From contig SDNY01000050.1 in the NCBI GenBank assembly GCA_004524535.1, forward strand, positions 1 to 23,709: DNA of 23,709 nucleotides, given 5' to 3'. The notes beneath the pieces were generated by a model. The model worked only from the letters and a program-made list of their open reading frames with translations. It had not been told where the DNA came from and did no database searches. This DNA comes from Promethearchaeota archaeon (GTDB lineage: Archaea; Asgardarchaeota; Lokiarchaeia; Sigyniarchaeales; SOKP01). The translations under genes were made by a program, and so were the position numbers. Shown here piece after piece: positions 3,964 through 21,817 of this stretch. How positions within the stretch are numbered: position 1 is the stretch's first letter; each line of letters starts with the position of its first letter.

Positions 3964-6303
3964 ATGACAAGGAATGAATCGGAGGAGGAATTAAAAGGAT
4001 TTAAAAAAAAATATGAAAGAATCATTAAACATTTGGATATTGGTTATTTTAAATCTGATGCTAATGGAAAGATATTAGATCATAATCCTAGCTTTAGTAA
4101 AATATTTGGTTACGAACCTAATGAGAGTTTAATAGGTTTTTCAGCTACAGATTTATGGGCTAAACCTGAAGATTTCAATACTTATCTAAAGGAAATAACT
4201 GAAAAAGGAAGATTAGGAAGTTATATACACAAAGCAAGAAAGAAAAATGGAGAGATTATTGTTTTGCACTCCCATTCACATGTATATAAAAATAAAGAAA
4301 AAAATACATTTGAAGCAGAAGGTACTATTTTCGATATATCTGAGAAATATTTTTTAGAGCAAAAATTAAAAGAATCGGAAAAAAATTATAGAAATATTAT
4401 AGAAAATGCTCAAGATGCTATAGTTATATTTGGACTTGATGGAAATCTTAGATATATTTCTCCTCAATTAAGTAAGATGTTAGGAAGAGAAATAGAACTT
4501 GGAACTAGAGCTTTTGATGGGATCCATCCAGATGACCAAAAAGTTTTAGTTGAAGCTTTTAAAAAAGCCGTTAGAGAAAAAGGGACCTATACAAATGAGG
4601 AATTCGAATTTAGAGCTATTCATAACGATGGCCATTATATTTGGTTATCAAGTTTGACGAAAAATTATTATGATGATGAGGGAAATCTGGATGGGTTTAT
4701 CGCATTATTAAAAGATATTGCAGACAAAAAAGAAACACAGAGAAAATTATTGGAATCCGAACAAAAATATAGAAATATTATTGAAAATACTAAAGATGCA
4801 ATTGTCATAATAGGGTTTGACGGTAAGTTTAAATACATTTCTCCTCAATTATCCAAAATAGTGGGCAGAGAAGTCAATCTCGAAACTACATTATTCTCTG
4901 ATATCCATCCAGATGATCTCGATTATTTGAAAGATATTGTTTTTACTTCTATTAGAAACAAAAATGTTAGTATTAAAGATGATATTGAAGTCCGAGTGCG
5001 ACATAACGAGGGATATTATATATGGTTGTCTAGCTCTTCGAAAAATTATTATGATGAAAATGGAAATGTAATAGGGTTCATTACATTATTAAGGGATGTT
5101 ACTGATAAAAAAGAAGCTGAACAAAAATTAAGAGAATCTGAAAAAAAATATAGAGAAATCCTCGATAATCTAGAACAAGGCTATTATGAGGTAGATCATA
5201 AGGGAATTTATACATTAGCAAATGAATATTTTGCTAAATTTAACGGAACTACACCAGATGAGATGATTGGAACGAGTTATAAAAAATACATAGATAAGGA
5301 CGCAGATAATGCTTTATTTAAGGTATATAATCAAATTTATAGAGAAGACATTCCAAAAATGACGCGACAGTTTGAAATTACAGATCGGGATGGATTAAAA
5401 CGCGCTTTTGAATTAATAATTTATTTAAAACGCGATTCGAATGGTAAAAAAATTGGTTTTTATGGTACATTGTATGATATTTCAGAACGAAAAAAATGGG
5501 AGCGAAAATTAGAAGAATCCGAAGAAGAATTAATACTATTAAATAAAGAATTAGAAAAAAAGGTTAAGGAAAGAACCAGAGAGTTAGAAGAGAAGAATCT
5601 TCAATTAAAGAAATTAGATAAAGCAAAAGATGATTTTATTACAATGGCAGCTCATGAATTAAAGACACCTCTAATATCTATTGCGGGGTATACAGATTAT
5701 ATCTTAACTACTCATATAGACGATCTAAATGTTGAGATTAAAAACGATTTATTAATAGTGCAACGAAATATAAAACGTTTACAGACTTTTATGAATCAAT
5801 TATTAGATATTATGAAAATCGAATCCCATAAAATAGAGTTAAAGTTAGAACGAACGAATATTAGTAATATTATATATGCATGTTTACATGAATTAAATTA
5901 TCTATTTAAAGAAAAAAATCATGAAATGATTTTAAATATAGATAATGAGATATTTTTAAATGTAGATTCTAACCGAATTTTTCAAGTCTTTTCCAATTTA
6001 CTATCTAATGCTATTAAATTTACGCAGAAGAATGGTAGAGTCGCAATAAAAGCAAAAAAAGAAGAAATGCATTATCTTTTTGAGGTTAAAGATAATGGTA
6101 TTGGCTTACCTGAGGAAGATCTTGAACGTATCTTTAAAAAATTTGAAAGGATTGAACAAATGAGTGAAACCTATGATCAAACTGGTACCGGAATCGGATT
6201 ATACATATCTAAAGGATTCATCGAAGCTCATGGAGGAAAAATGTGGGCGACTTCTGAAGGTTTAAATAAAGGAACATCGATTTATTTCACGATTCCTATT
6301 TAA
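3964..6303 (+). CDS. cytoplasmic PAS-domain (x4) sensor histidine kinase
   Basis: Four PAS/PAC units (ESEKxYRxII...D(I/V)xxxK), coiled coil, H-box AAHELKTPL, N-box NLLSNAIKFT, G1 DNGIG, G2 GTGIGL; no TM segment. Confidence 0.95.
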   Translation: MTRNESEEELKGFKKKYERIIKHLDIGYFKSDANGKILDHNPSFSKIFGYEPNESLIGFSATDLWAKPEDFNTYLKEITEKGRLGSYIHKARKKNGEIIVLHSHSHVYKNKEKNTFEAEGTIFDISEKYFLEQKLKESEKNYRNIIENAQDAIVIFGLDGNLRYISPQLSKMLGREIELGTRAFDGIHPDDQKVLVEAFKKAVREKGTYTNEEFEFRAIHNDGHYIWLSSLTKNYYDDEGNLDGFIALLKDIADKKETQRKLLESEQKYRNIIENTKDAIVIIGFDGKFKYISPQLSKIVGREVNLETTLFSDIHPDDLDYLKDIVFTSIRNKNVSIKDDIEVRVRHNEGYYIWLSSSSKNYYDENGNVIGFITLLRDVTDKKEAEQKLRESEKKYREILDNLEQGYYEVDHKGIYTLANEYFAKFNGTTPDEMIGTSYKKYIDKDADNALFKVYNQIYREDIPKMTRQFEITDRDGLKRAFELIIYLKRDSNGKKIGFYGTLYDISERKKWERKLEESEEELILLNKELEKKVKERTRELEEKNLQLKKLDKAKDDFITMAAHELKTPLISIAGYTDYILTTHIDDLNVEIKNDLLIVQRNIKRLQTFMNQLLDIMKIESHKIELKLERTNISNIIYACLHELNYLFKEKNHEMILNIDNEIFLNVDSNRIFQVFSNLLSNAIKFTQKNGRVAIKAKKEEMHYLFEVKDNGIGLPEEDLERIFKKFERIEQMSETYDQTGTGIGLYISKGFIEAHGGKMWATSEGLNKGTSIYFTIPI

Positions 6304-6441: not shown

Positions 6442-8625
6442 ATGTCAACATTAATAATAGCTGAAAAAAATAAAGCTGCTTTAGCAATCGCAGAAGCGCT
6501 TGGTACAGTTAAAGCAATAAAAAAATCAAAAGGTATTTCAATTTATTATGTTCCTTCAAAAAATATTTATGTTGTACCTCTAAGAGGACATATTCTCGAA
6601 CATAGAAATACGGATGAATATAAAAGTTGGATTAACTCAGTTCCTCGTGAAATTATTACTAATCCCAATTCTATTAAAAAATATCCAAAAAATTACGCCG
6701 GACCATACATTAATGCATTGATAGAATATGGAAAACAGTGTGACGAGATTATAATAGCAACGGATGCGGACATTGAGGGGTGTAATATTGGTTTCTTTGA
6801 TGCACTTCCTTTTGTTAAAAAAGTTAATTCAAATACCAAGATTTCTCAATTATGGCTGAGTTCTTTACAAAAGAATGAGATTCAAAGAAAATTCAATAAT
6901 TTGATCCAACCTAAGTTTAGTTGGGGAGAAGCTGGAGAAGCACGAGCTATAATTGATGCCGTTATTGGTTTTTCTGCCACAAGAGAGGTAACTAATACTT
7001 TAAGACCTATTCTAAAGAAATTTAAAGTCGGATTTACCTCAATAGGTAGAGTACAATCCTCAGCTTTATATTTACTTTATATCAGAGAAAAAGAAATTAT
7101 GGATTTTTTACCAGAGAAATATTTTACAATCGATGCAATTTTAATCGCTGAAAAATCCACATTTAAAGCATATCATAAGAATAATCCCTTTAAGAAGGAG
7201 AATATGGATAAAGCTAAGCATATTTATAGTAAAATTAAGGATGAGAAAATAACGGTCATTAAGAATTACAACCAGAATCTAGTTCAAAGAAAGCCACCAA
7301 CTCCATTGAATACAAATAAAGCACTTATCTTACTTACGAAAAATTTGAACATTAATGCTAATACTGCTTTAAATATTATGAATCAACTATATCTCAATAA
7401 AATTATAACATATCCTCGAACAGATAGCGATGTGTATAAACCAGACTTTCCACATAAAGATTTAATTGATTTATTCAAAACTCACTCTGATTATGGGGTA
7501 TACACTAAAGGTTTGATCAGTAATAACCGATTTACTCCAACTAAAGGGAAAAAGGATGCAGGAGATCACCCCCCTATTTCTCCCTTGATAAGTCTAGAAT
7601 TAGAGAGTAATGAGCTCAAAGATGATCTTCAAAAAAAAGTATATGATCTATTAGCAAGACATTATCTTTCTTTATTTGGAGAGAATGCTACTGAATCTAA
7701 GCAAGATTTAGATTTATTAATAAAAGATGAACCATTTAAAGCACAAATTGTTTCATTAGTAGATCCTGGCTTTTTAATAATCGCACCATTTTTAAAACCT
7801 AAATATGATACAGAAATACAAATTAGTGGAGATAAAATCCCAATAGAAAATATTGAACTTAATGAAAAAGAAACTAAGCCTCCTCCACATTATACAGATA
7901 CCACGCTTCTTAAATTAATGGAAAAAAATGGACTGGGAACAAAATCAACCAGACCAGCCATAATAGAGATTATGAAAAAAAGAAAAGTCATTGATAGAAA
8001 GAATGGAAGGTATTTCATCTCAAGTCTCGGCATCTTTCTAATTGAAAATCTTATTAAAGTCTGGTTGCCGTTTTTGAAACCTACATTCACTCATGATGTG
8101 GAAACTCAACTTGAAATGATAAAAGATGAAAAACTTGGAATGAACGTAGTTATTGACAAAGTGAAAAAAGATTTCTTAATGTTGTTTGATAAATTTCTTG
8201 CTAACAAGGAAAAATTAATTGCGAATGCTAAAGAATATGAAAATGAAGTCAAAGATGTGGGAGTAGATCTTAAAGAAAGAAAAGCATCTCCATTAACAAC
8301 AGCTAATTGTCCCTTCTGTAAAAAAGCCCCGATGAAACTCATTACTCCATATAAAAAAAGAAGATTCTTAGTATGTACAAATGAGAAATGTAGTAAGAAG
8401 TATCTAGCTGTTCCCGCAAAGGGAAAAATACAAATTTTAGACTCCACATGTAAAATTTGCGGTTTTAATATTTTTAAAATTGGAACTTATAAGAATAATA
8501 AGTATTTCAATTATTTTATATGTCCCAAATGTTGGACTGAAGGTTTGGAAACTAAATCAGGAAAAGGATTTTGTTCAAATTGCGATAATTATAAAATCGT
8601 AAAAAATCAATGTGTGAAAAAATAG
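6442..8625 (+). CDS. topA: DNA topoisomerase type IA (archaeal TopA/TopoIII-like) with C-terminal Zn ribbons
   Basis: TOPRIM IIAEK and ATDADIEG, SIGRVQS, catalytic ITYPRTDS, GLGTKSTR; C-terminal CPFC, CKIC, CPKC and CSNC motifs. Confidence 0.95.
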   Translation: MSTLIIAEKNKAALAIAEALGTVKAIKKSKGISIYYVPSKNIYVVPLRGHILEHRNTDEYKSWINSVPREIITNPNSIKKYPKNYAGPYINALIEYGKQCDEIIIATDADIEGCNIGFFDALPFVKKVNSNTKISQLWLSSLQKNEIQRKFNNLIQPKFSWGEAGEARAIIDAVIGFSATREVTNTLRPILKKFKVGFTSIGRVQSSALYLLYIREKEIMDFLPEKYFTIDAILIAEKSTFKAYHKNNPFKKENMDKAKHIYSKIKDEKITVIKNYNQNLVQRKPPTPLNTNKALILLTKNLNINANTALNIMNQLYLNKIITYPRTDSDVYKPDFPHKDLIDLFKTHSDYGVYTKGLISNNRFTPTKGKKDAGDHPPISPLISLELESNELKDDLQKKVYDLLARHYLSLFGENATESKQDLDLLIKDEPFKAQIVSLVDPGFLIIAPFLKPKYDTEIQISGDKIPIENIELNEKETKPPPHYTDTTLLKLMEKNGLGTKSTRPAIIEIMKKRKVIDRKNGRYFISSLGIFLIENLIKVWLPFLKPTFTHDVETQLEMIKDEKLGMNVVIDKVKKDFLMLFDKFLANKEKLIANAKEYENEVKDVGVDLKERKASPLTTANCPFCKKAPMKLITPYKKRRFLVCTNEKCSKKYLAVPAKGKIQILDSTCKICGFNIFKIGTYKNNKYFNYFICPKCWTEGLETKSGKGFCSNCDNYKIVKNQCVKK

Positions 8626-8747: not shown

Positions 8748-9332
8748 TTATGACTTTTCTATTGGATTGTCCCAATTCCTCCCATTTATAAAAAAATAAA
8801 TTTCCAAGTCTTTACGATGGGACTGTAGTTCCTTGAGCTGTGAAATTGAAAGATTATTATAACTTAAAATTACGATTTTTAAATTAGGCAGTTCATAAAG
8901 ATATTCAATATTTTTTATCTTATTCATACTCAAATTCAACCTTACTAATTTATTAAGAGCCTTCAGACCTTTGATTTCATTTATTTGATTACAACTTAAC
9001 TCTAATTCTCGCAAATTAATTAATGAATCTAGACCTTTTATCTCGGTAATTTTATTGCTATTAAGGCATAATACTTTAAGATTAACAAGGTTCTCAAGAC
9101 CCTCTATTTCAGCAATTTTATTGGAATCTAAAAATAATTCTTCCAGATTAAGTAAATTGTCGAGACCATGAATCTTTTTAAAGCTATTACCGCCTAATTC
9201 TAATCTTTTAAGCGATTTTAAATTATCTAAATCCTTTATTTCACTAATATCGGAAATGAACAAATTATTTACCTCTAAACATTTGTAAGACCCTTTGACA
9301 TAAAATTTCTTACCTTTGAATGATACTGACAT
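8748..9332 (-). CDS. leucine-rich repeat protein (SDS22/internalin-like 22-aa repeats)
   Basis: Repeats of LxxLxLxxNKIxEIxGLxxLxN. Confidence 0.9.
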   Translation of the reverse strand: MSVSFKGKKFYVKGSYKCLEVNNLFISDISEIKDLDNLKSLKRLELGGNSFKKIHGLDNLLNLEELFLDSNKIAEIEGLENLVNLKVLCLNSNKITEIKGLDSLINLRELELSCNQINEIKGLKALNKLVRLNLSMNKIKNIEYLYELPNLKIVILSYNNLSISQLKELQSHRKDLEIYFFINGRNWDNPIEKS

Positions 9333-12627: not shown

Positions 12628-13749
12628 TTGACTGTTTTAGATGATTTTACTAAAGGAGATTCCCTTTTAAATCCGTGGATGGATGAATGGAAAAAACAGG
12701 GAAAAAAAATATTAGGATATTTTTGTACTTATATCCCAGAGGAGATAATTCATGCAGCAGATATTTTACCAGTTAGGATTAGAGCAAAAGGTTGCACGGA
12801 CACTCCAATGGGAGATGCCTACTTATCACCTACGACTTGTTCTTTTACCCGCTGTTGCCTTGAGATGGCAAATAGAAAGCAATTTGATTTTCTTGATGGG
12901 ATAATTTCTTGTAATAGTTGTGATCAAATCCGTAGACTTTACGATAATATACGATATAAAACACCATTTTCCAATCAATATTTTCTGAGTGTTCCTAGTA
13001 ATGTAAATGATATAACAATAGATTTTTTTAAATATGAATTAAATAAGTTCAAAAATTATTTAGAAAAAACATTTAATGTCGACATTACTGAGGAAAAACT
13101 CAAAAATTCAATAGAATTACATAATAAAAGCAGAACTCTTCTTAAAGAATTATATTTGCTCAGAAAGAAAAAGAATCCTCCTATTACTGGCACTGATATA
13201 ATGAATATTCTACTCTCTGGAGTTTCAATGCCTAAAAATCAATTTAATGAGTTATTAACTACACAGCTAAAAGAAATTGAAGGAAAAGAAGGAATCTCTG
13301 ACGATAAATCAAGAATAATGCTGGTAGGAAGCATGCTGGATGATCCTGAATATGTTAAAATAATTGAGGATTTAGGGGGTTTAATTGTTAATGATGCCGT
13401 TTGTATTGGCACGAAATATTTTTGGGAGATAGTAGATGAAAACTTAGATCCTTTAGATGCTCTTGCGAACCGTTATTTATCAAGAGTATCTTGTCCGCGG
13501 ATGGCTGGTGAACAGTCTAAAAGAGTTGATTTTGTATTAAATTTAATTAAAGAGTTCAATGTTGATGGAGTTATCTTTCAGAGAATGAAGTTCTGCCCGT
13601 TTTGGTGGGCAGAAATATTTGTTCTTAGGGATGAATTGAAAAAACAAGGCGTTCCCTTTCTTGATTTGGAAAGGGAATATGTATTAAGTGGTGCCGGAGC
13701 GATGAAAACACGTGTTCAAGGATTTATGGAAGTATTAGAGGGGAAGTAA
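12628..13749 (+). CDS. hgdB: 2-hydroxyacyl-CoA dehydratase / benzoyl-CoA reductase family subunit (HgdB/BcrC-like)
   Basis: GYFCTYIPEEIIHAA, TCSFTR, SCDQIRR, RYL...SCPR, MKFC, KTRVQGFME; TTG start. The symbol is family-level and the substrate is unknown. Confidence 0.85.
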   Translation: MTVLDDFTKGDSLLNPWMDEWKKQGKKILGYFCTYIPEEIIHAADILPVRIRAKGCTDTPMGDAYLSPTTCSFTRCCLEMANRKQFDFLDGIISCNSCDQIRRLYDNIRYKTPFSNQYFLSVPSNVNDITIDFFKYELNKFKNYLEKTFNVDITEEKLKNSIELHNKSRTLLKELYLLRKKKNPPITGTDIMNILLSGVSMPKNQFNELLTTQLKEIEGKEGISDDKSRIMLVGSMLDDPEYVKIIEDLGGLIVNDAVCIGTKYFWEIVDENLDPLDALANRYLSRVSCPRMAGEQSKRVDFVLNLIKEFNVDGVIFQRMKFCPFWWAEIFVLRDELKKQGVPFLDLEREYVLSGAGAMKTRVQGFMEVLEGK

Positions 13750-13859
13750 ATTGGATGAGGAGATCTCCAGAGAATATAAAACGAGACGAGGAAAAATTTC
13801 AGATTTCTGAAGCCAAATTATTAGATAAATTATATTTAATTTGAATTAAAGGTAAAAAA

Positions 13860-15215
13860 ATGAATGAACTAAGAATTGAAGAAGAACTTAAAGAATATAA
13901 AAAGCTTGGAAGAGGAAATTGGGGTGAAGGATTCGGTCTTTTGAAAGGAATGTATAATGGGTTCATTACTCGAATTAGAGACGAAGCAGCAGAAATGGAA
14001 GAAGAACAAGACGAAATAATGCCCCCCATGAAAATGCTCTTAAACTTATTACTCGATCTCAGAAATGCTAGGCGCGAAGGAAGAAAAATTTGTATGCATC
14101 CTTTCAATTATGGACCAGAGTTACTTTATACTATGGGTTTAGTCCCTCTAATGCAAGAGCTTTTCAGTGTAGGATTGGCAACTACCCATATTAATGAATT
14201 TTATCTTGATATAACCAACAAAATCGGATATGGAGATAATCCCACTTTATGTAATGCGCAGAGACCATTAATCGGAGCTTATATGCAAAAAGCTGCTCCT
14301 GTTCCAGATCTTCTCTTCTTTTTATCAACTCCATGTAATTCTCTTTCAATAACATATCAAGTATTTCAACACATAACAAATGTTCCTTTATTCAACATAG
14401 ATATCCCCTATTGGGCACATGAACATAGCAGTGAATTTTATGATGAGAGAATAATGGATTATATGCTCTCTCAATTAAAAAATTTTATACCTTGGTTAGA
14501 AAAACAAACAAACAGGAAATTTGAGATTGAGAAATTTCAGGAAACTATGAATTTAGTGAACCAATCGCGGGAATATGTAAGTGATTTCAATGAACTTTTA
14601 AAGACTGTTCCTTGTCCTGTACCTAGTATAGCAGGTTTTGGGAATTGGTTAGCAATGACATTACGTGGTGGTACTTCCGAGGCTGTTAAAGTTACTAAAT
14701 ATATACGTGATCAGGCTGCGGAAAGAGTTAAAGAAGGATTAGGTGGAGTAGAAGATGAGAAACTTCGAATTGCATGGCCCTATACTCATGTATTTTTTGA
14801 TCAAGAGCTATTCAAATGGTTAGAGGAAGAATTTCAAGCCGTTACAATAATGGATATTTTAGGGTTCTATCCAGTGGGCCCTCATGATACATCAACACTA
14901 GAAAAATGTTATGAAAGCTTAGCGTTAGGTACTTTAGATTATTCTATGATTGGAACATGTCGTGGACCGGTTGAGTATTTTGTTGATTTTCTGATAAATT
15001 GGATAAATGAATATAAAATTGATTGTGTTATCATTCCTATGCAGTTTGCGTGTAAACATGCTTACGCTATGACAACGTTAGCTTCCGAAATAGCGAGACA
15101 GGAAACTGGAGTCCCTACATTGGTTTTTGGTTGCGATCCTTATGACTCAAGAGAAGTTCCCTCAGAAACGATACGAGCAAAAATTTCAGAATTTTTAAAC
15201 CAGATTGTATTATAA
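13860..15215 (+). CDS. hgdA: 2-hydroxyacyl-CoA dehydratase / benzoyl-CoA reductase family subunit (HgdA/BcrB-like)
   Basis: Three putative Fe-S cysteines (LCNAQR, STPCNS, FACKH), PCPVP, GVPTLVFGCDPYDSR. The symbol is family-level. Confidence 0.8.
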   Translation: MNELRIEEELKEYKKLGRGNWGEGFGLLKGMYNGFITRIRDEAAEMEEEQDEIMPPMKMLLNLLLDLRNARREGRKICMHPFNYGPELLYTMGLVPLMQELFSVGLATTHINEFYLDITNKIGYGDNPTLCNAQRPLIGAYMQKAAPVPDLLFFLSTPCNSLSITYQVFQHITNVPLFNIDIPYWAHEHSSEFYDERIMDYMLSQLKNFIPWLEKQTNRKFEIEKFQETMNLVNQSREYVSDFNELLKTVPCPVPSIAGFGNWLAMTLRGGTSEAVKVTKYIRDQAAERVKEGLGGVEDEKLRIAWPYTHVFFDQELFKWLEEEFQAVTIMDILGFYPVGPHDTSTLEKCYESLALGTLDYSMIGTCRGPVEYFVDFLINWINEYKIDCVIIPMQFACKHAYAMTTLASEIARQETGVPTLVFGCDPYDSREVPSETIRAKISEFLNQIVL

Positions 15216-15263
15216 AAAGAGGATATGAATAATTACAAATTGTATTATAAAAAAAGGATATGA
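15204..15263. repeat. short direct repeat (2 x 25 bp, 35-bp period) duplicating stop codon, RBS and ATG
   Basis: attgtattataaaaagaggatatga (15204-15228) vs attgtattataaaaaaaggatatga (15239-15263). Confidence 0.8.
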
Positions 15264-16051
15264 TTAAAATGATTGTAGCAGGATGTGATGTCGGATCTTT
15301 AACTGGAAAGGCAGTAATTTTAAAAGACGGAGATATACTTTCTCAATGTATTGTTCCAACAACTCCTAAGCCAGTAAGAACCGCAAAAAATGCAATGAAT
15401 GGAGCATTAGAAAAATGTGCTCTATCTTTGGACGATATTGAATATATCGTAGGGACGGGTTATGGTCGAGTAAAAATCCCGTTTGCAACTATGGAAACTT
15501 CAGAATTAACATGTCATGGGAAAGGAGCTCATTCATGTATACCAGAAATAAGAACCATAATTGATGTAGGCGGTCAAGATTGTAAAGTTATAAAGGTTAA
15601 TAAAGATGGGAAGATGCTAGACTTTGCGATGAATGATAAATGTGCTGCCGGAACCGGGAGATTCTTAGAAGTAATGGCAAAAACTCTTGAGTTAAAACTA
15701 GAAGAACTCGGTCCTATTTCTCTTAAATCAAATAGCCCCGCAAAAATTACATCTCAATGTAGTGTATTCGCGGAAACGGAGGTTGTAAGTCTAATGGCTG
15801 ACGACACAGAAGTATCAGATATAGTTGCTGGGATTCATGATGCCATAGCAGCAAGAATCATGACTTTAGTTTATAGAGTGGGTCTTGAGAAGGAAGTCGT
15901 TATTTCAGGAGGAGTCGCAAAAAATGTCGGCGTAGTTAATTACTTAGAAAAAAGAATGGGTATGAAAACAATGGCACTGCCAGTTGATCCTCAAATAATA
16001 GGTGCCTTGGGGGCTGCTCTTATAGCGAATGATAAAGCAAAATCCCAATAA
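15260..16051 (+). CDS. hgdC: CoA-substrate-specific enzyme activase (HgdC/BadF/BcrA-D family ASKHA [4Fe-4S] ATPase)
   Basis: GCDVGSLTGK, GTGYGR, ELTCHGKG, IDVGGQDCK, MNDKCAAGTGRFLE, CSVFAETE, SGGVAKN, GALGAAL. The start may be ATG 15269. Confidence 0.92.
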   Translation: MIKMIVAGCDVGSLTGKAVILKDGDILSQCIVPTTPKPVRTAKNAMNGALEKCALSLDDIEYIVGTGYGRVKIPFATMETSELTCHGKGAHSCIPEIRTIIDVGGQDCKVIKVNKDGKMLDFAMNDKCAAGTGRFLEVMAKTLELKLEELGPISLKSNSPAKITSQCSVFAETEVVSLMADDTEVSDIVAGIHDAIAARIMTLVYRVGLEKEVVISGGVAKNVGVVNYLEKRMGMKTMALPVDPQIIGALGAALIANDKAKSQ

Positions 16052-16148: not shown

Positions 16149-17261
16149 TTATAATAAGTTGCCCGGAATGCCATCTGAATAATATTTTGAGCGTGTTATC
16201 CAATTTTCAGAAAATTCTGGAATCATTGCTAAAATTGATCCTCCAATCCATACTGAATAAGTTCTTTCCCTAGGTGCGATGATTCTTATTCCTTGGTTCT
16301 TCTTTTTTTGCCTTGCTAATTCCACTTCCAACTCACTATAAATTCGTGATTTAAGATTAGGAAACATCGATGATCCTCCTGATAAAAAAATATTATTTAA
16401 CAGTTCCGAACGTATATCTAAATCACATAAATCAAGAACTTCTATAATAGCTTTAGGTAATGAAGTATATTCTAAGTTTATTAGGGAAGGATTAAATAAA
16501 ACTTCAGGAAGCATAAATCTTTCTTTAGAAAGAGTAATTGTTGAACCGTCTGGCAATGAATATTGCTTTGAATATTGTTCCGCTCTATTAAGATCTTCTT
16601 TATAATCTAAAGAGACAAAACAAGCTTTTTCTTTTAAAACTCTAACTAAGTCCCTTCTTATAGATGAATCAACCACGAAACCTATTGAAGTCAAAATTGT
16701 TTCCAATTGCCGAGTTAATACCTTTCCACCTATATCAATAATCTTAACTGCGTGATTTAATTTAAAGCCTTCATAAATAGGGACAATTCTAGTATTACTA
16801 TCTCCAATTTCAATTACTAAACCTGTTTGAAATCCCCCTGAATAGAGAGTGCACATGGAATCTAAAACGGGATAAAATGCCATGCATTGATAATCTTCTA
16901 AGAATAGCTGAAATAATCTTTCCAAATCCTGTTTTGGAAACAGAGGATGTACGGCATATAATACATTTACAAGAGTTGGATCTACTCTTAAACCATAAAA
17001 GATATAATCCAAAATTTTAGAAAAATAGTTCCAATCAGTAATTTTACCCTTTTCCATAGGTGAATAAATTTTGTATAGTCCAATCGACTGAATCTCATCG
17101 CCCACATATAATTCTTGCTCACGTGTACCATGCCCTTCAAAATCTTGATATTTTGGTTTCCCGACCATAGTAAAAAACACTTGAGATGGATAATCCTCTC
17201 CAGCAAAACCCCCCTTTGTAGAAAATTGACCGATATCTAAAACAATAGTAAGATTACCCAT
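16149..17261 (-). CDS. actin-family protein (divergent Asgard actin-related protein)
   Basis: IVLDIG..STKGGFAGEDYP, YVGDE, IVPIYEGF, VLKEKACFVSLDY, YSLPDG..I....ERF..PEVLFNPS, LSGGSSMFP and ERTYSVWIGGSILA are colinear with eukaryotic actin over 370 aa. Confidence 0.95.
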   Translation of the reverse strand: MGNLTIVLDIGQFSTKGGFAGEDYPSQVFFTMVGKPKYQDFEGHGTREQELYVGDEIQSIGLYKIYSPMEKGKITDWNYFSKILDYIFYGLRVDPTLVNVLYAVHPLFPKQDLERLFQLFLEDYQCMAFYPVLDSMCTLYSGGFQTGLVIEIGDSNTRIVPIYEGFKLNHAVKIIDIGGKVLTRQLETILTSIGFVVDSSIRRDLVRVLKEKACFVSLDYKEDLNRAEQYSKQYSLPDGSTITLSKERFMLPEVLFNPSLINLEYTSLPKAIIEVLDLCDLDIRSELLNNIFLSGGSSMFPNLKSRIYSELEVELARQKKKNQGIRIIAPRERTYSVWIGGSILAMIPEFSENWITRSKYYSDGIPGNLL

Positions 17262-17346
17262 GGGAAAAAAAAGAAAAAATAATTCACTATAAATAACTAA
17301 ATAAAATCATTTATTTAATTTTATACAAACTTTTCTAATTATACAA

Positions 17347-17372
17347 TAAGCTCTGTTTGAGCTTAAAAAAAA
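17347..17372 (-). promoter_or_regulatory. inverted repeat plus T8 tract between the proline-rich gene and the actin-like gene (possible terminator or operator)
   Basis: taagctc-tgttt-gagctta (17347-17365) with an adjacent A run (17365-17372) that reads as oligo-T on the - strand. Confidence 0.35.
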
Positions 17373-17449
17373 TCAAAAATAAGAGCGTTAAATCAAATAT
17401 TTAGAAAAATAAATATTCAGAAAAGTAAGTTACAACGAATTTTTGTAAC

Positions 17450-18202
17450 TTATTCTCCTCTCATAATTTTCTTAAGTCTAGTTAGCTCTTCAAGCATTTC
17501 ATCTCTAAGTGAACCTAGTCCACCGCCTGGCGTTGCTGCTTTCGCTGGAGCTGCAGGGCTACCAGCTAAGGGAGGTGGAGCTCTTTTAGCAAAAGACCCA
17601 CTTGCAGTAGGAGCTGTTGGAGGGGCTGTTCCTGATCCTGGTGCCGGAGGAAGTTTCGGAGCAGGAGGCAATTTACTACCACCTGGAGCCTTTGGAGGAC
17701 CACCGCCACCTGGAGCCTTTGGGGGACCACCACCACCCGGAACTTTTGGAGGACCACCGCCACCTGGAGCCTTTGGAGGACCACCACCACTCGAAACTTT
17801 TGGAGGACCACCACCACCCGGAACTTTTGGAGGACCATCACCACCCGGAACTTTTGGAGGACCACCACCACCCGGAACTTTTGGAGGACCGCCTGATAAG
17901 GCAGCAGTGGCTGGAGTTCGTGGAGCACCGCCTCCTGAAGCTCCACTTAATAAATTAATTAACGTACTAGCAGCCGCTGTTTTTGCTGTCCCTGCATCTG
18001 CAATAACTTGCGTAGAGGATGTACTGACTGTTTGAACTTCGCTTTCTACGGTTACTTCTGTCATATCCTTTTGAGCCTTTGATAAGGAGTCTAAAAATTC
18101 ATTGATACCTTTAACCGTTCCTTCTAATTCGTCGGCTAATCCAGATAATCCTTTTTTAAGAAATGCAATAACTCTGGAAACTTTCTTCTTATCCGAAACC
18201 AC
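17450..18202 (-). CDS. proline/glycine-rich repeat protein with C-terminal WH2-like or Ena/VASP-like helix; candidate actin regulator
   Basis: GTG start with upstream AGAGGA; N-terminal amphipathic helix, S/T/A linker, 8 x GGPPK(V/A)PGG, 2 x KLPPAP, C-terminus GGGLGSLRDEMLEELTRLKKIMRGE. The CDS is confident; the function is inferred. Confidence 0.75.
   Translation of the reverse strand: MVSDKKKVSRVIAFLKKGLSGLADELEGTVKGINEFLDSLSKAQKDMTEVTVESEVQTVSTSSTQVIADAGTAKTAAASTLINLLSGASGGGAPRTPATAALSGGPPKVPGGGGPPKVPGGDGPPKVPGGGGPPKVSSGGGPPKAPGGGGPPKVPGGGGPPKAPGGGGPPKAPGGSKLPPAPKLPPAPGSGTAPPTAPTASGSFAKRAPPPLAGSPAAPAKAATPGGGLGSLRDEMLEELTRLKKIMRGE
17678..17893 (-). repeat. in-frame tandem repeat, 8 x 27 bp
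   Basis: Units such as accacctggagcctttggaggaccacc on the + strand, encoding GGPPK(V/A)PGG; GC-rich within an AT-rich window. Confidence 0.95.
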
Positions 18203-18493: not shown

Positions 18494-18760
18494 ATGGCAA
18501 AGAAAGAGCTGTTTATAAAACGCGTCTATGAAATAGTTAACGAGTTAAAGATTCCTTTAATTGACGAGAGAGTATACGATAAAGTTGCATTTAATCCGGG
18601 GGCATCAATCGCTAATGTTTCCTTCCAATTTGAGGAAGATGAGAGTGTGATCCGTGGATTCCTCGGTTTGGCTGAATATTTCCACACTGTTGTAATCAAG
18701 CGAAAAGATGAGTTCTATATACCCCATTCATCACTATTGTTTAAATTGGTAAGCTCGTAA
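18494..18760 (+). CDS. hypothetical protein (88 aa)
   Basis: Clean ORF, more GC-rich than its flanks, GGTG SD-like element upstream, followed by a long T tract. Confidence 0.8.
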   Translation: MAKKELFIKRVYEIVNELKIPLIDERVYDKVAFNPGASIANVSFQFEEDESVIRGFLGLAEYFHTVVIKRKDEFYIPHSSLLFKLVSS

Positions 18761-19782: not shown

Positions 19783-20961
19783 TTGGACCTTAAAAGTGAA
19801 GCTTCAGAACAAGCTCCCTTTAAAAAGTATAAGAAGCTTTCTATAAAGGAATTTGGAGGTGCATTTGGAGATTGGGGCACTTTAGTCCCCTTTATAATTG
19901 GATATATAGCGATTGTAGGATTAAATCCAGCAGGTATTTTTTTCTGTTTAGGATTTACTAATCTTATATTGGGAGTAAAATTTAATCTTCCTTTACCAGT
20001 TCAACCGCAAAAAACAATAAGTACTATTGCCATATCTCAAAATTGGAGTCCAAATTTAGTGATATCAACAGGTTTCGGTACTGGTATAGTTTGGTTTATC
20101 TTAGGATTATCAAAAAAGCTTAATAATATCGTAAAAAGAGTGCCAACAATTGCAGTTCGGGGCGTCCAACTTGGATTAGCATTAATTTTAGGATGGACAG
20201 CGATTATTATGTTAAACGATAATTTAATATTAGGAATCATTTCAATCTCAATTATCGTACTTTTAATAAAAGTAAAAAAAGTCCCTTCTGCAATCATTCT
20301 TATGTTTATAGGTATATTCATATTGTTTTTCACAGGCGCTTTAACTTTTTCTGAAATTAAATTTGGATTACCTCGTTTTGAATTTCAAGTACCTACTATA
20401 GAAAATTTATTGATTGGGATGCTTATTGCTGGAATTGCACAATTATTTTTAACATTAACAAATGTTATGATCGCTACAATTAGTTTAGTTAAGGATTTGT
20501 TTCCTGAAAAAGAAGATATAATTGATGCTAATTCTTTAGCATTAAATATGGGTATCATGAACTTGATAAATCCTTTTTTAGGTGGAATGCCCATGTGTCA
20601 TGGTTCTGGAGGCTTAGCTGCTCAGTATGCGTTTGGTGCGAGAACAGGAGGTTCAATGATTTTTGAAGGAATTATAGAGATTATTCTTGGATTATTTTTT
20701 TCTCAGATGCTATACAAGTTTTTTAACCAATTCCCTAAAGCAATCTTAGGTGCAATGTTGATTTATATCGCTATATTATTAGGTAGAATTGCTTTTAAAG
20801 AGTTTAATTTGAAAACATTTCCTATTATTTTAATTTCAGCAATTATTTGTTTTGCATTTAATATCGCTCTCGGTTTTTTTATAGGCTTGATTTTGTTCTT
20901 GGTTTTTAGAAAAAAAATCGAAGAACCTCAAAAGGGAGAAGAAAATTCGGAAAACGATTAA
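19783..20961 (+). CDS. putative molybdate/sulfate transporter (MOT1 family)
   Basis: EFGGAFGDWGTLVP, PLPVQPQK and GGMPMCHGSGGLAAQYAFGARTGG signature motifs; multiple TM helices. Confidence 0.88.
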   Translation: MDLKSEASEQAPFKKYKKLSIKEFGGAFGDWGTLVPFIIGYIAIVGLNPAGIFFCLGFTNLILGVKFNLPLPVQPQKTISTIAISQNWSPNLVISTGFGTGIVWFILGLSKKLNNIVKRVPTIAVRGVQLGLALILGWTAIIMLNDNLILGIISISIIVLLIKVKKVPSAIILMFIGIFILFFTGALTFSEIKFGLPRFEFQVPTIENLLIGMLIAGIAQLFLTLTNVMIATISLVKDLFPEKEDIIDANSLALNMGIMNLINPFLGGMPMCHGSGGLAAQYAFGARTGGSMIFEGIIEIILGLFFSQMLYKFFNQFPKAILGAMLIYIAILLGRIAFKEFNLKTFPIILISAIICFAFNIALGFFIGLILFLVFRKKIEEPQKGEENSEND

Positions 20962-21067: not shown

Positions 21068-21817
21068 TTATTCATCATTATCATGCTCATTCATAATGTT
21101 TTTATACATTTCTATCATAATTTGCTCTGGATTGAGATTAGGGTCGAGATCTCTAAAATCCCTTGGATCGATTTTAATAGCTTCACCATGTTTAAATGCT
21201 AAATTTATAGTTCGAATATATCTTTCATTTGAGTCAGGCTCCAATGGTTCCTCAAAATAGTCTATATTCTTTTCGAGGGCATTAATCAGATCTGCCATAT
21301 TAACAACTGTTTCTTCTTTTATAATACATTTTTCTTCAGGTTTAAGTTGGGTGATTTTAAACATCATCTCGTTATTTTCACCAAGAGAAATATTTATTAT
21401 CTCATATATAGAAACAAAAGTGTTTTTTAATTCTCTTTTTATATATTTTACAGATGTAGGATTTATAAATAGAATTACGGGATCTAAGGTTGAGGATTTC
21501 AGATTAAGTCGTGGTTCACTGCGTAAAGGAGTAAGAACGATTAATTTAGCTACTTTTACGTTCTCTTTTCGTACTTGAACACTGTCACCATAATTTACAG
21601 CTATGATTTGCCTCATTCTCTCGCTAAGCCGTATTATTCCTTTTTTTTTATCCTTGGGATAACAAGGCAGTGCAATACCAGCACTTTCATTTTTTCCTAT
21701 CAATTTTACCATATCTCCAGTTTGAAGCCCTAATTTTTCAATTTCAAATCTAAGGATATCACTCTCTTTATCTTTCTTTTTCGCTTTTTCAACAATTAAA
21801 GAAATAATATCACTCAT
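21068..21817 (-). CDS. Cdc48/VAT N-terminal-domain protein lacking AAA+ modules
   Basis: LIVEKAKKKD....LR....EKLGLQTGDMVKLIG...GIIRL...MR......GDSVQVRK..V..AK.IVL.P matches CDC48_N, followed by a CDC48_2-like subdomain; no Walker A or B. Confidence 0.8.
   Translation of the reverse strand: MSDIISLIVEKAKKKDKESDILRFEIEKLGLQTGDMVKLIGKNESAGIALPCYPKDKKKGIIRLSERMRQIIAVNYGDSVQVRKENVKVAKLIVLTPLRSEPRLNLKSSTLDPVILFINPTSVKYIKRELKNTFVSIYEIINISLGENNEMMFKITQLKPEEKCIIKEETVVNMADLINALEKNIDYFEEPLEPDSNERYIRTINLAFKHGEAIKIDPRDFRDLDPNLNPEQIMIEMYKNIMNEHDNDE

Follow-up and report, generated by a model that had tools for sequence, protein, structure and literature searches.

The described systems closest to the locus reported here are eukaryotic actin-binding proteins and membrane tethers. 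In WH2 proteins (WASP/WAVE, WIP, and thymosin-beta4), the motif L-[KR]-[KR]-[TV] follows an amphipathic helix; in nucleation-promoting factors (NPFs) of the WASP/WAVE type, a C-terminal central/acidic region with a Trp binds the Arp2/3 complex; and Ena/VASP proteins combine EVH1, a proline-rich region, and EVH2 with a tetramerization coil. In the membrane tethers ZipA (bacterial), TANGO1/cTAGE5 (eukaryotic), and CdvA (crenarchaeal), a disordered spacer leads to a terminal element that binds a partner. For Asgard archaea, actin nucleation machineries are described as yet to be discovered in the accessible part of one report (PMC9433394), and gelsolins and profilins are the sole regulators named in the accessible part of a 2025-2026 motility study. 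Here we describe a 23,709-nucleotide stretch of a Promethearchaeota archaeon genome (assembly GCA_004524535.1, contig SDNY01000050.1; the whole stretch is referred to as the window), in which a gene encoding a 250-residue proline-rich protein lies upstream of a gene encoding an actin homolog. The original prediction was that this pair could be a proto-NPF or proto-VASP with its cognate actin-related protein (Arp).

We lean toward a different interpretation, in which the proline-rich protein is a tether or adaptor presenting a docking helix and its adjacency to the actin paralog reflects inherited gene order. The N terminus would hold the protein in place, here by a coiled-coil-type helix of 47 residues and in most other Asgard lineages by a coiled coil together with at least one transmembrane helix, the remainder being presumably cytoplasmic. 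A disordered Pro/Gly-rich spacer of variable length, carrying the short proline motif LPPAPKLPP and FAKR, would end in a 17-residue amphipathic helix, LRxEMLxELxRLKxxM, the putative working part that docks to a conserved cytoplasmic partner. The downstream gene would be a lineage-restricted, divergent actin paralog with changed nucleotide-binding loops, and the adjacency would have been inherited within one family and tightened in the window's genus by loss of an intervening PIG-L gene. The anatomy, conservation, distribution, alternative architectures, and limits of synteny described below are directly supported. The resemblance to ZipA, TANGO1/cTAGE5, and CdvA, seen in the membrane-anchored architecture of most Asgard lineages, is one of layout; no homology to them appeared at the sequence level, a 17-residue helix takes the place of a terminal domain, and the window form has no transmembrane segment.

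The two genes and the parts of the proline-rich protein are as follows:

17450..18202, minus strand: proline-rich protein gene; open reading frame (ORF) of 250 amino acids (aa), GTG start, no Pfam family, member of an Asgard family
16149..17261, minus strand: divergent actin paralog gene (not Lokiactin); ORF of 370 aa with a Pfam Actin match
18053..18193, minus strand: N-terminal long helix, residues 4-50, coiled-coil type; AlphaFold2 predicted local distance difference test (pLDDT) 80-92; proposed oligomerization module
17948..17986, minus strand: second short helix, residues 73-85 (KTAAASTLxxLLSG type); helix in the AlphaFold2 model
17678..17890, minus strand: 27-nucleotide tandem repeat, 7.9 copies, encoding GGGGPPK[VA]P units; 88% matches, score 321
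17645..17671, minus strand: LPPAPKLPP motif, residues 178-186; from the 46-sequence alignment
17582..17593, minus strand: FAKR motif, residues 204-207; A205, K206, and R207 at least 90% conserved in 46 sequences
17459..17518, minus strand: C-terminal amphipathic helix, residues 229-248 (L232 RDEMLEELTRLKKIM); AlphaFold2 pLDDT 90-94; proposed docking helix

Both genes are co-oriented on the minus strand, with the proline-rich gene upstream of the actin paralog gene. The layout originally called from the DNA alone (N-terminal helix, linker, Pro/Gly tract, and C-terminal helix with LKKI, with an actin homolog 188 bp downstream) is correct, and its anatomy was borne out by the ORF list, the Pfam scan, repeat finding, the AlphaFold2 model, and the homolog alignment. 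The proline-rich protein has a mass of 23.77 kDa and consists of 19.2% Gly, 16.0% Pro, 12.0% Ala, and 9.2% Lys; a Pfam scan returned zero families at an E value of ≤0.1. In the AlphaFold2 model, built on the alignment of 46 homologs, residues 86-228 are without secondary structure (pLDDT mostly <60), and the C-terminal helix is not packed against the N-terminal helix of the monomer. Eight GPPK units recur at 9-residue spacing across residues 105-168, and alignment gaps show that the number of GGGGPPK[VA]P repeats differs among homologs, marking this region as a disordered spacer of variable length.

Conservation is concentrated outside this repeat tract. A sequence search returned 185 homologs at an E value of ≤0.01, with source labels of Promethearchaeota or Lokiarchaeota and with all named members called "hypothetical," and the protein was present in 35 of 40 related genomes. 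In the conservation alignment (the query plus 45 homologs, 56 to 72% identical to the query overall), all 45 homologs begin with a MVSxxKK-like sequence, the N-terminal 90 residues are conserved, and the C-terminal end GGGLxSLRDEMLxELxRLKKIMRG (G226 to G249) is invariant or nearly so. With 185 homologs found and both termini shared by the 45 aligned ones, the reading frame is genuine and not a repeat artifact. Invariant positions also include K74, A77, A78, T80, L81, L84, and L85 of the second helix, with a similar hydrophobic-xx-LL-x-G motif in distant soluble forms of the family, and P179, A181, P182, L184, and P185 of LPPAPKLPP, where L178, P180, K183, and P186 are conserved in at least 90% of sequences. 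Structural comparisons of the N terminus returned coiled coils. In the PDB, the matches to a profile of residues 1-95 were all designed coiled-coil bundles (best E value, 4.6e-11), and a fold search matched only single long coiled-coil helices, over residues 1-56 (Z of ≤6.0, a range rated common), while the ESM Atlas placed the protein in an unnamed Promethearchaeota cluster of 357 members, with structure rows at TM-scores of <0.3. The 47-residue N-terminal helix probably oligomerizes.

Across the phylum, the C-terminal helix reaches much further than the full-length protein. A profile of the full-length soluble form matched 75 of 201 sampled Asgard genomes, with weaker matches covering only the proline tract and C terminus of longer ORFs. 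In comparison, a profile of the last 36 residues, built from an alignment of 26 diverse Asgard members from many families, matched 171 of the 201 genomes and 80 of the 86 high-quality ones, mostly once per genome. The L, M, E, R, and K of LRxEMLxELxRLKxxM were invariant across the 26 sequences. The predicted conservation of this helix held in the 46-sequence alignment, in these 26 sequences, and in the survey of 201 genomes. Seven families among the 201 genomes gave no match: f19 (0/5), f22 (0/7), and f8, f11, f13, f25, and f28 (0/1 each). The architecture in most lineages is an N-terminal transmembrane helix, basic residues, a coiled coil, a Pro/Thr-rich spacer, FAKS, and the C-terminal helix, with FAKS directly preceding the helix in these membrane-anchored relatives. 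One family instead has polytopic membrane proteins of ~550 to 570 aa with the same C-terminal helix. Genome G169 carries two adjacent paralogs of this kind (L108:519-2222 and L108:2804-4483, both minus strand), ~560-aa polytopic membrane proteins with a proline-rich spacer and the helix at the end.

When the helix profile was searched against 1.84 billion representative proteins, 63 matches were obtained at an E value of ≤1e-3, including Ras-family GTPase-like proteins with the helix at or near the C terminus (P0122, P0158, and P0172) and proteins in which the helix is repeated two to three times in tandem before a Cys-rich domain (P0121, P0134, P0165, and P0167). This recurrence on varied architectures marks the helix as a portable module, and we therefore read it as a putative docking element. 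In another match, P0156 (549 aa), a whole proline-rich protein of the soluble type, with its helix, is fused to a transmembrane segment and to a TIR domain at the C terminus (Pfam TIR_2; E value, 6.3e-18); the fusion may be genuine or an artifact of gene calling. In the window's genome, the helix occurs once in its strict form and once as a variant, QLRDQMLNELNNLK, on a 166-aa Cys-rich ORF (contig C5 of G000, L086:1234-1734, minus strand), where it is followed by the Cys-rich domain CPVCG...GIPCCNCFKK. This ORF shares its architecture with P0121, P0134, P0165, and P0167, has no Pfam family, and lies ~2.3 kb from a weak gelsolin match. In genome G015 of the window's family, a 555-aa Sec23/24-like protein (L115:363-2030, minus strand), in which Pfam recognizes a zinc ribbon, a Sec23 trunk, and a beta-sandwich, contains LKSEMLNELNRLK, a helix that matches the helix profile; this may be chance or a shared docking element.

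The downstream gene was predicted to encode an actin homolog, and this was confirmed, with the refinement that it is an actin paralog distinct from Lokiactin. Residues 5-364 of the 370-aa protein match Pfam Actin (PF00022) at 292.1 bits (cutoff, 27; E value, 6.9e-87), the best PDB matches are actins at E values of ~1e-87, and all 60 PDB matches listed are actins, with no Arp chain among them. Four actin-family genes are present in the window's genome, the strongest of which, on contig C50 (441 bits), is Lokiactin. The paralog is 42% identical to this C50 Lokiactin, compared with 67 to 99% for Lokiactins of other families. Within the order sampled, orthologs of the paralog were found in two families only, at 64 to 84% identity in the window's family and 47 to 56% in the sister family f2; family f3 gave a partial match of 53%, and no ortholog was found in family f4. 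One ortholog in the window's genus (G007:C48:1-1081, locus L009) was matched as two overlapping pieces, residues 1-133 and 121-357, which suggests a frameshift or an assembly error.

An alignment of 21 paralogs (20 orthologs plus the window protein) and 8 Lokiactins, in which loops were read in 7 paralog and 3 Lokiactin rows, showed the first phosphate loop as D-[IVM]-G-[QE]-[FY]-S in paralogs versus D-N-G-[TS]-G in Lokiactins, with GQF or GEF replacing G[ST]G. Paralog rows also have D/G and R at positions that we take to correspond to Q137 and H161 of muscle actin, and in paralogs of family f2, the Asp of the second loop is changed as well. Judging from these residues, nucleotide handling by the paralog is probably altered, and the changes in the loop and at the Q137 and H161 positions suggest altered or lost ATP hydrolysis. 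The window's paralog resembles Lokiactin and the Asgard Arps in being a full-length actin-fold protein, but differs from Lokiactin in its low identity, substituted nucleotide loops, and restricted lineage. Its genome has as many actin-family genes as Lokiarchaeum ossiferum, for which Lokiactin and three Arps are listed in the accessible part of the source (PMC9834061).

Two further features bear on how the genes are linked:

17262..17449, minus strand: AT-rich intergenic spacer, 188 bp; a PIG-L gene occupies the same place in other genera
17395..17459, minus strand: terminator-like element; two hairpins directly after the stop codon of the proline-rich gene, followed by U-rich sequence

The hairpin region (17395..17459) folds as RNA at -17.8 kcal/mol (z of -4.36), and none of 200 shuffled sequences was equally stable. 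A hairpin followed by a U-rich stretch 3' of the proline-rich gene suggests that the two genes would be transcribed separately. Linkage was scored from the combined coordinates of both gene searches in the 23 other genomes of the window's family. Both genes were found in 19 of these, and in 17 of the 19, the proline-rich gene was upstream of the paralog on the same contig and strand; in the other two (G016 and G019), the genes were on separate contigs, near contig ends. In one genome (G008), the proline-rich gene was at the end of a contig and the paralog was not found, and three (G006, G009, and G013; 72 to 91% complete) lacked both genes. The gap between the genes was 158 to 193 bp in the six linked genomes of the window's genus (G001 to G005 and G007) versus 477 to 2,436 bp in other genera. 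A gene of ~249 aa occupied the gap in eight loci, with a remnant in a ninth, and three of these genes were confirmed by Pfam as PIG-L deacetylases. The 188-bp spacer of the window holds no PIG-L remnant, and no PIG-L ortholog was found elsewhere in the window's genome.

Outside the window's family, this arrangement dissolves. PIG-L also follows the proline-rich gene in family f3, with no actin within ~6 kb. In the sister family f2, distances of 43, 70, and 100 kb separate the two genes on the three long contigs, and every other f2 genome that has both carries them on separate contigs. Thirty loci of other families had no actin-family ORF within ~6 kb, in a search whose positive control passed, and the 89 of 165 neighboring ORFs scanned were housekeeping genes, with no actin, profilin, or gelsolin. 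Neighbors there include adenylosuccinate synthetase, restriction-modification methylases, tRNA synthetases, and similar genes, with a ribose-5-phosphate isomerase gene beside seven of the eight membrane-anchored loci scanned; none of these offers a clue to function. The proline-rich family is also present in lineages where the paralog was not found. Conserved linkage across Asgard genomes, one of the checks originally proposed, thus held within the window's family (17/19) and failed in other families, including f2, and a dedicated module of the proline-rich protein and its Arp is not supported, since linkage is confined to one family, PIG-L intervenes, and the f2 genes are 43 to 100 kb apart. 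Gene adjacency alone is no evidence that the two proteins cooperate.

Published proteome and coimmunoprecipitation (co-IP) data from L. ossiferum, as given in the accessible part of the report, provide a lead. The Arp UYP44126.1 (42.18 kDa; proteome rank 2258) was quantified in two Lokiactin immunoprecipitations (IPs) and no IgG controls (PMC13716822). Its neighbor, GNAMCCOK_00419, is an abundant hypothetical protein of 21.43 kDa (rank 259 of about 3,061; PMC13716822, supplementary file 10) that showed no enrichment with Lokiactin by co-IP (log2 ratio of -0.60; adjusted P value of 0.098; quantified in one actin IP and three IgG controls; PMC13716822). The window's proteins are 42.22 and 23.77 kDa, and proline-rich relatives are 21.5 to 22.4 kDa, so that UYP44126.1 and GNAMCCOK_00419 are a candidate orthologous pair by mass and adjacency only, with sequence identity unconfirmed. 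A second pair from the accessible data, the Arp UYP44711.1 (55.6 kDa) and its 41.9-kDa neighbor, was rejected on mass.

The proposal that the C-terminal helix is a WH2-type binder, forming a nucleation or elongation module with the neighboring Arp, draws on real parallels. Like WH2 proteins, the window protein has a short amphipathic helix and L-K-K-hydrophobic after a proline-rich tract, with hydrophobic spacing before LKKI that is compatible with the WH2 consensus, and some relatives have tandem helix copies, as the tandem-WH2 proteins Spire and Cobl do. Its putative oligomerizing coil, proline-rich region, and short conserved helix follow the logic of Ena/VASP and WASP. However, none of the 26 C-terminal 36-mers matched Pfam WH2 (PF02205) at an E value of ≤10, although HMMER filters may drop very weak matches. 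Across these 26 members, only the initial L/I and first K of LKKI are kept; the basic pair becomes KK, KE, KA, KR, or KT, and the fourth residue is I, L, F, Y, or M, not T or V, giving variants such as IKEI, LKAL, LKAF, and LKRL within what is predicted to be one continuous helix. The WH2-type identity originally assigned to the LKKI helix is therefore not supported, given the absent Pfam match and the unconserved KK, though by sequence, failed WH2 membership leaves room for a helix that may still bind actin. Comparison with Ena/VASP is similarly limited. A Pfam scan of the proline-rich protein found no EVH1, EVH2, or VASP homology, the N-terminal helix resembles coiled coils only in a generic way, the coil comes first in the chain where Ena/VASP has it last, prolines are mostly paired and without long runs, and most proline-rich relatives are membrane anchored. 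The protein ends in ...RLKKIMRGE, without an acidic or Trp tail, and neither ARPC4 nor ARPC2 had a Pfam match in the window's genome, in searches run without a positive control. LPPAPKLPP does resemble the VASP peptide PPPAPPLPAAQ, a profilin ligand in the accessible part of PMC8410842. With the linkage confined to one family, interrupted by PIG-L in other genera, and absent in the sister family, and with a proline-rich family far wider than the paralog, we consider a proto-NPF or proto-VASP very unlikely, even with the 17 linked genomes in its favor and with Asgard nucleation machinery described as still to be found (PMC9433394, accessible part).

Other explanations place the helix on a different partner. 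Binding to Lokiactin, at the monomer cleft or filament side, would make the family an Asgard-wide actin-membrane linker or elongation aid that is independent of the paralog. The partner must be near-universal in Asgard archaea, and Lokiactin was found in 51 of 61 sampled genomes at an E value of ≤1e-100, while in f13, f19, and f22, three of the families without a helix match, the best actin is only 51 to 54% identical to Lokiactin; the membrane-anchored forms, with their proline tracts, are reminiscent of actin assembly factors, and proline motifs could recruit profilin, for which the window's genome has two matches. The phyletic overlap is, however, confounded by deep divergence and few independent lineages, the sequence-level WH2 match is missing here as well, Loki and Odin profilins are reported not to bind polyproline in the accessible part of PMC8410842, and, tentatively, the unenriched 21.43-kDa neighbor in L. 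ossiferum, whose identity with the proline-rich family is unverified, speaks against it. Lokiactin binding in this form is unlikely. A broader version, somewhat unlikelier still, holds that the helix is an ancient Asgard actin-binding element that links the assembly of Lokiactin with the membrane and became paired with the paralog secondarily; in sequence, it would be either a remote precursor of WH2 or unrelated to it. If true, the family would be a pre-eukaryotic functional counterpart of formin FH1, VASP, or ActA, which most lineages anchor in the membrane and Lokiarchaeia make as a soluble, abundant oligomer, with the pairing to a loop-altered actin paralog confined to one Lokiarchaeial family.

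The remaining two candidates dispense with actin. The helix could be a short self-associating coiled coil, making the protein a multivalent cross-linker or condensate-forming scaffold. In the PDB, the helix profile matched only the C-terminal part of the GCN4 leucine zipper and zipper fusions, all weakly (E values of 0.2 to 8); read as heptads, the invariant E and K could form interhelix salt bridges in a parallel zipper; and single proteins carry tandem copies. However, the helix spans only ~2.5 heptads, no packing against the N-terminal helix appears in the monomer model, and single copies on GTPases and membrane anchors would be left unexplained, so that we regard self-association as improbable. 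A similarly low likelihood attaches to docking with a Vps4-type MIT domain, in the manner of an ESCRT-III MIM helix, or with a Sec23/24-small-GTPase coat, in a TANGO1/cTAGE5- or CdvA-like layout. The MIM1 consensus is (D/E)xxLxxRLxxL(K/R) at the C terminus. Like ESCRT-III MIM1, the amphipathic helix of the window protein is conserved, carries R-L-x-x-hydrophobic, and sits at the very C terminus behind a flexible proline-rich tail, but the protein has no ESCRT-III core, and agreement with the consensus is limited to R-L-x-x-I/L and the hydrophobic spacing of i, i+4, i+7. MIT domains occur in every helix-bearing family (186 of 201 genomes), the helix is also found on Ras-family GTPase-like proteins, a helix-like match lies in the Sec23/24-like protein described above, and Ras- or Arf-family genes adjoin the proline-rich gene in two loci. 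MIT is also present in families without a helix match (7 of 7 genomes in f22, plus f8 and f11), and the phyletic pattern is therefore uninformative; the Sec23/24 match may have arisen by chance, and no ESCRT gene was among the neighbors in loci scanned. The window's genome has 11 Pfam matches to MIT domains, compared with 1 to 3 in most genomes outside the window's family.

Several points weigh against the tether or adaptor interpretation itself. We infer the docking role solely from conservation and modularity, and oligomerization, cytoplasmic topology, and separate transcription are likewise only probable. The helix resembles a zipper end, weakly (E values of 0.2 or worse), and may self-associate instead of docking. 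Synteny at the family level is long-lived, spanning genera with 50 to 70% identical proline-rich proteins, and could still reflect function, and the absence of both genes from G006, G009, and G013 fits codependence, although it also fits one missing contig. What this analysis adds is an unannotated protein family that most of the sampled Asgard genomes contain and whose terminal helix, almost invariant, recurs on membrane anchors and on small GTPases. No description of this family was found in the literature searched, with most subscription-journal papers outside the reach of that search. For the gap in nucleation, elongation, and anchoring of Asgard actin filaments, the proline-rich protein is no more than a candidate. 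The question is now sharpened to what binds the 17-residue helix, and any of the candidate binders (actin, ESCRT/Vps4, a coat, or the helix itself) would be a new and widely conserved piece of Asgard cell biology.

Neighboring genes in the window complete the description of the locus. An 88-aa ORF (10.23 kDa, without a Pfam family; 18494-18760, plus strand) is divergent from the proline-rich gene, and its position is kept in several genera of the window's family (L012, L015, L017, L018, and L024); because this ORF is also conserved beside the proline-rich gene, local gene order is generally stable in the family. In L. ossiferum, the accessible data list a 10.01-kDa hypothetical protein (rank 39) encoded two genes from the candidate ortholog, whose mapping to the 88-aa ORF is unverified. 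Directly downstream of the actin paralog, and convergent with it, lies a dehydratase cluster (12628-16051, plus strand) of two 2-hydroxyglutaryl-CoA dehydratase D-component-like genes and a BcrAD/BadFG-type activator ATPase. Elsewhere, the window encodes two leucine-rich-repeat proteins (1332-2537 and 8748-9332, both minus strand), a multi-PAS histidine kinase (3964-6303, plus strand), a type IA topoisomerase (6442-8625, plus strand), a MOT1-type molybdate transporter (19783-20961, plus strand), and a CDC48 N-terminal-domain protein (21068-21817, minus strand).

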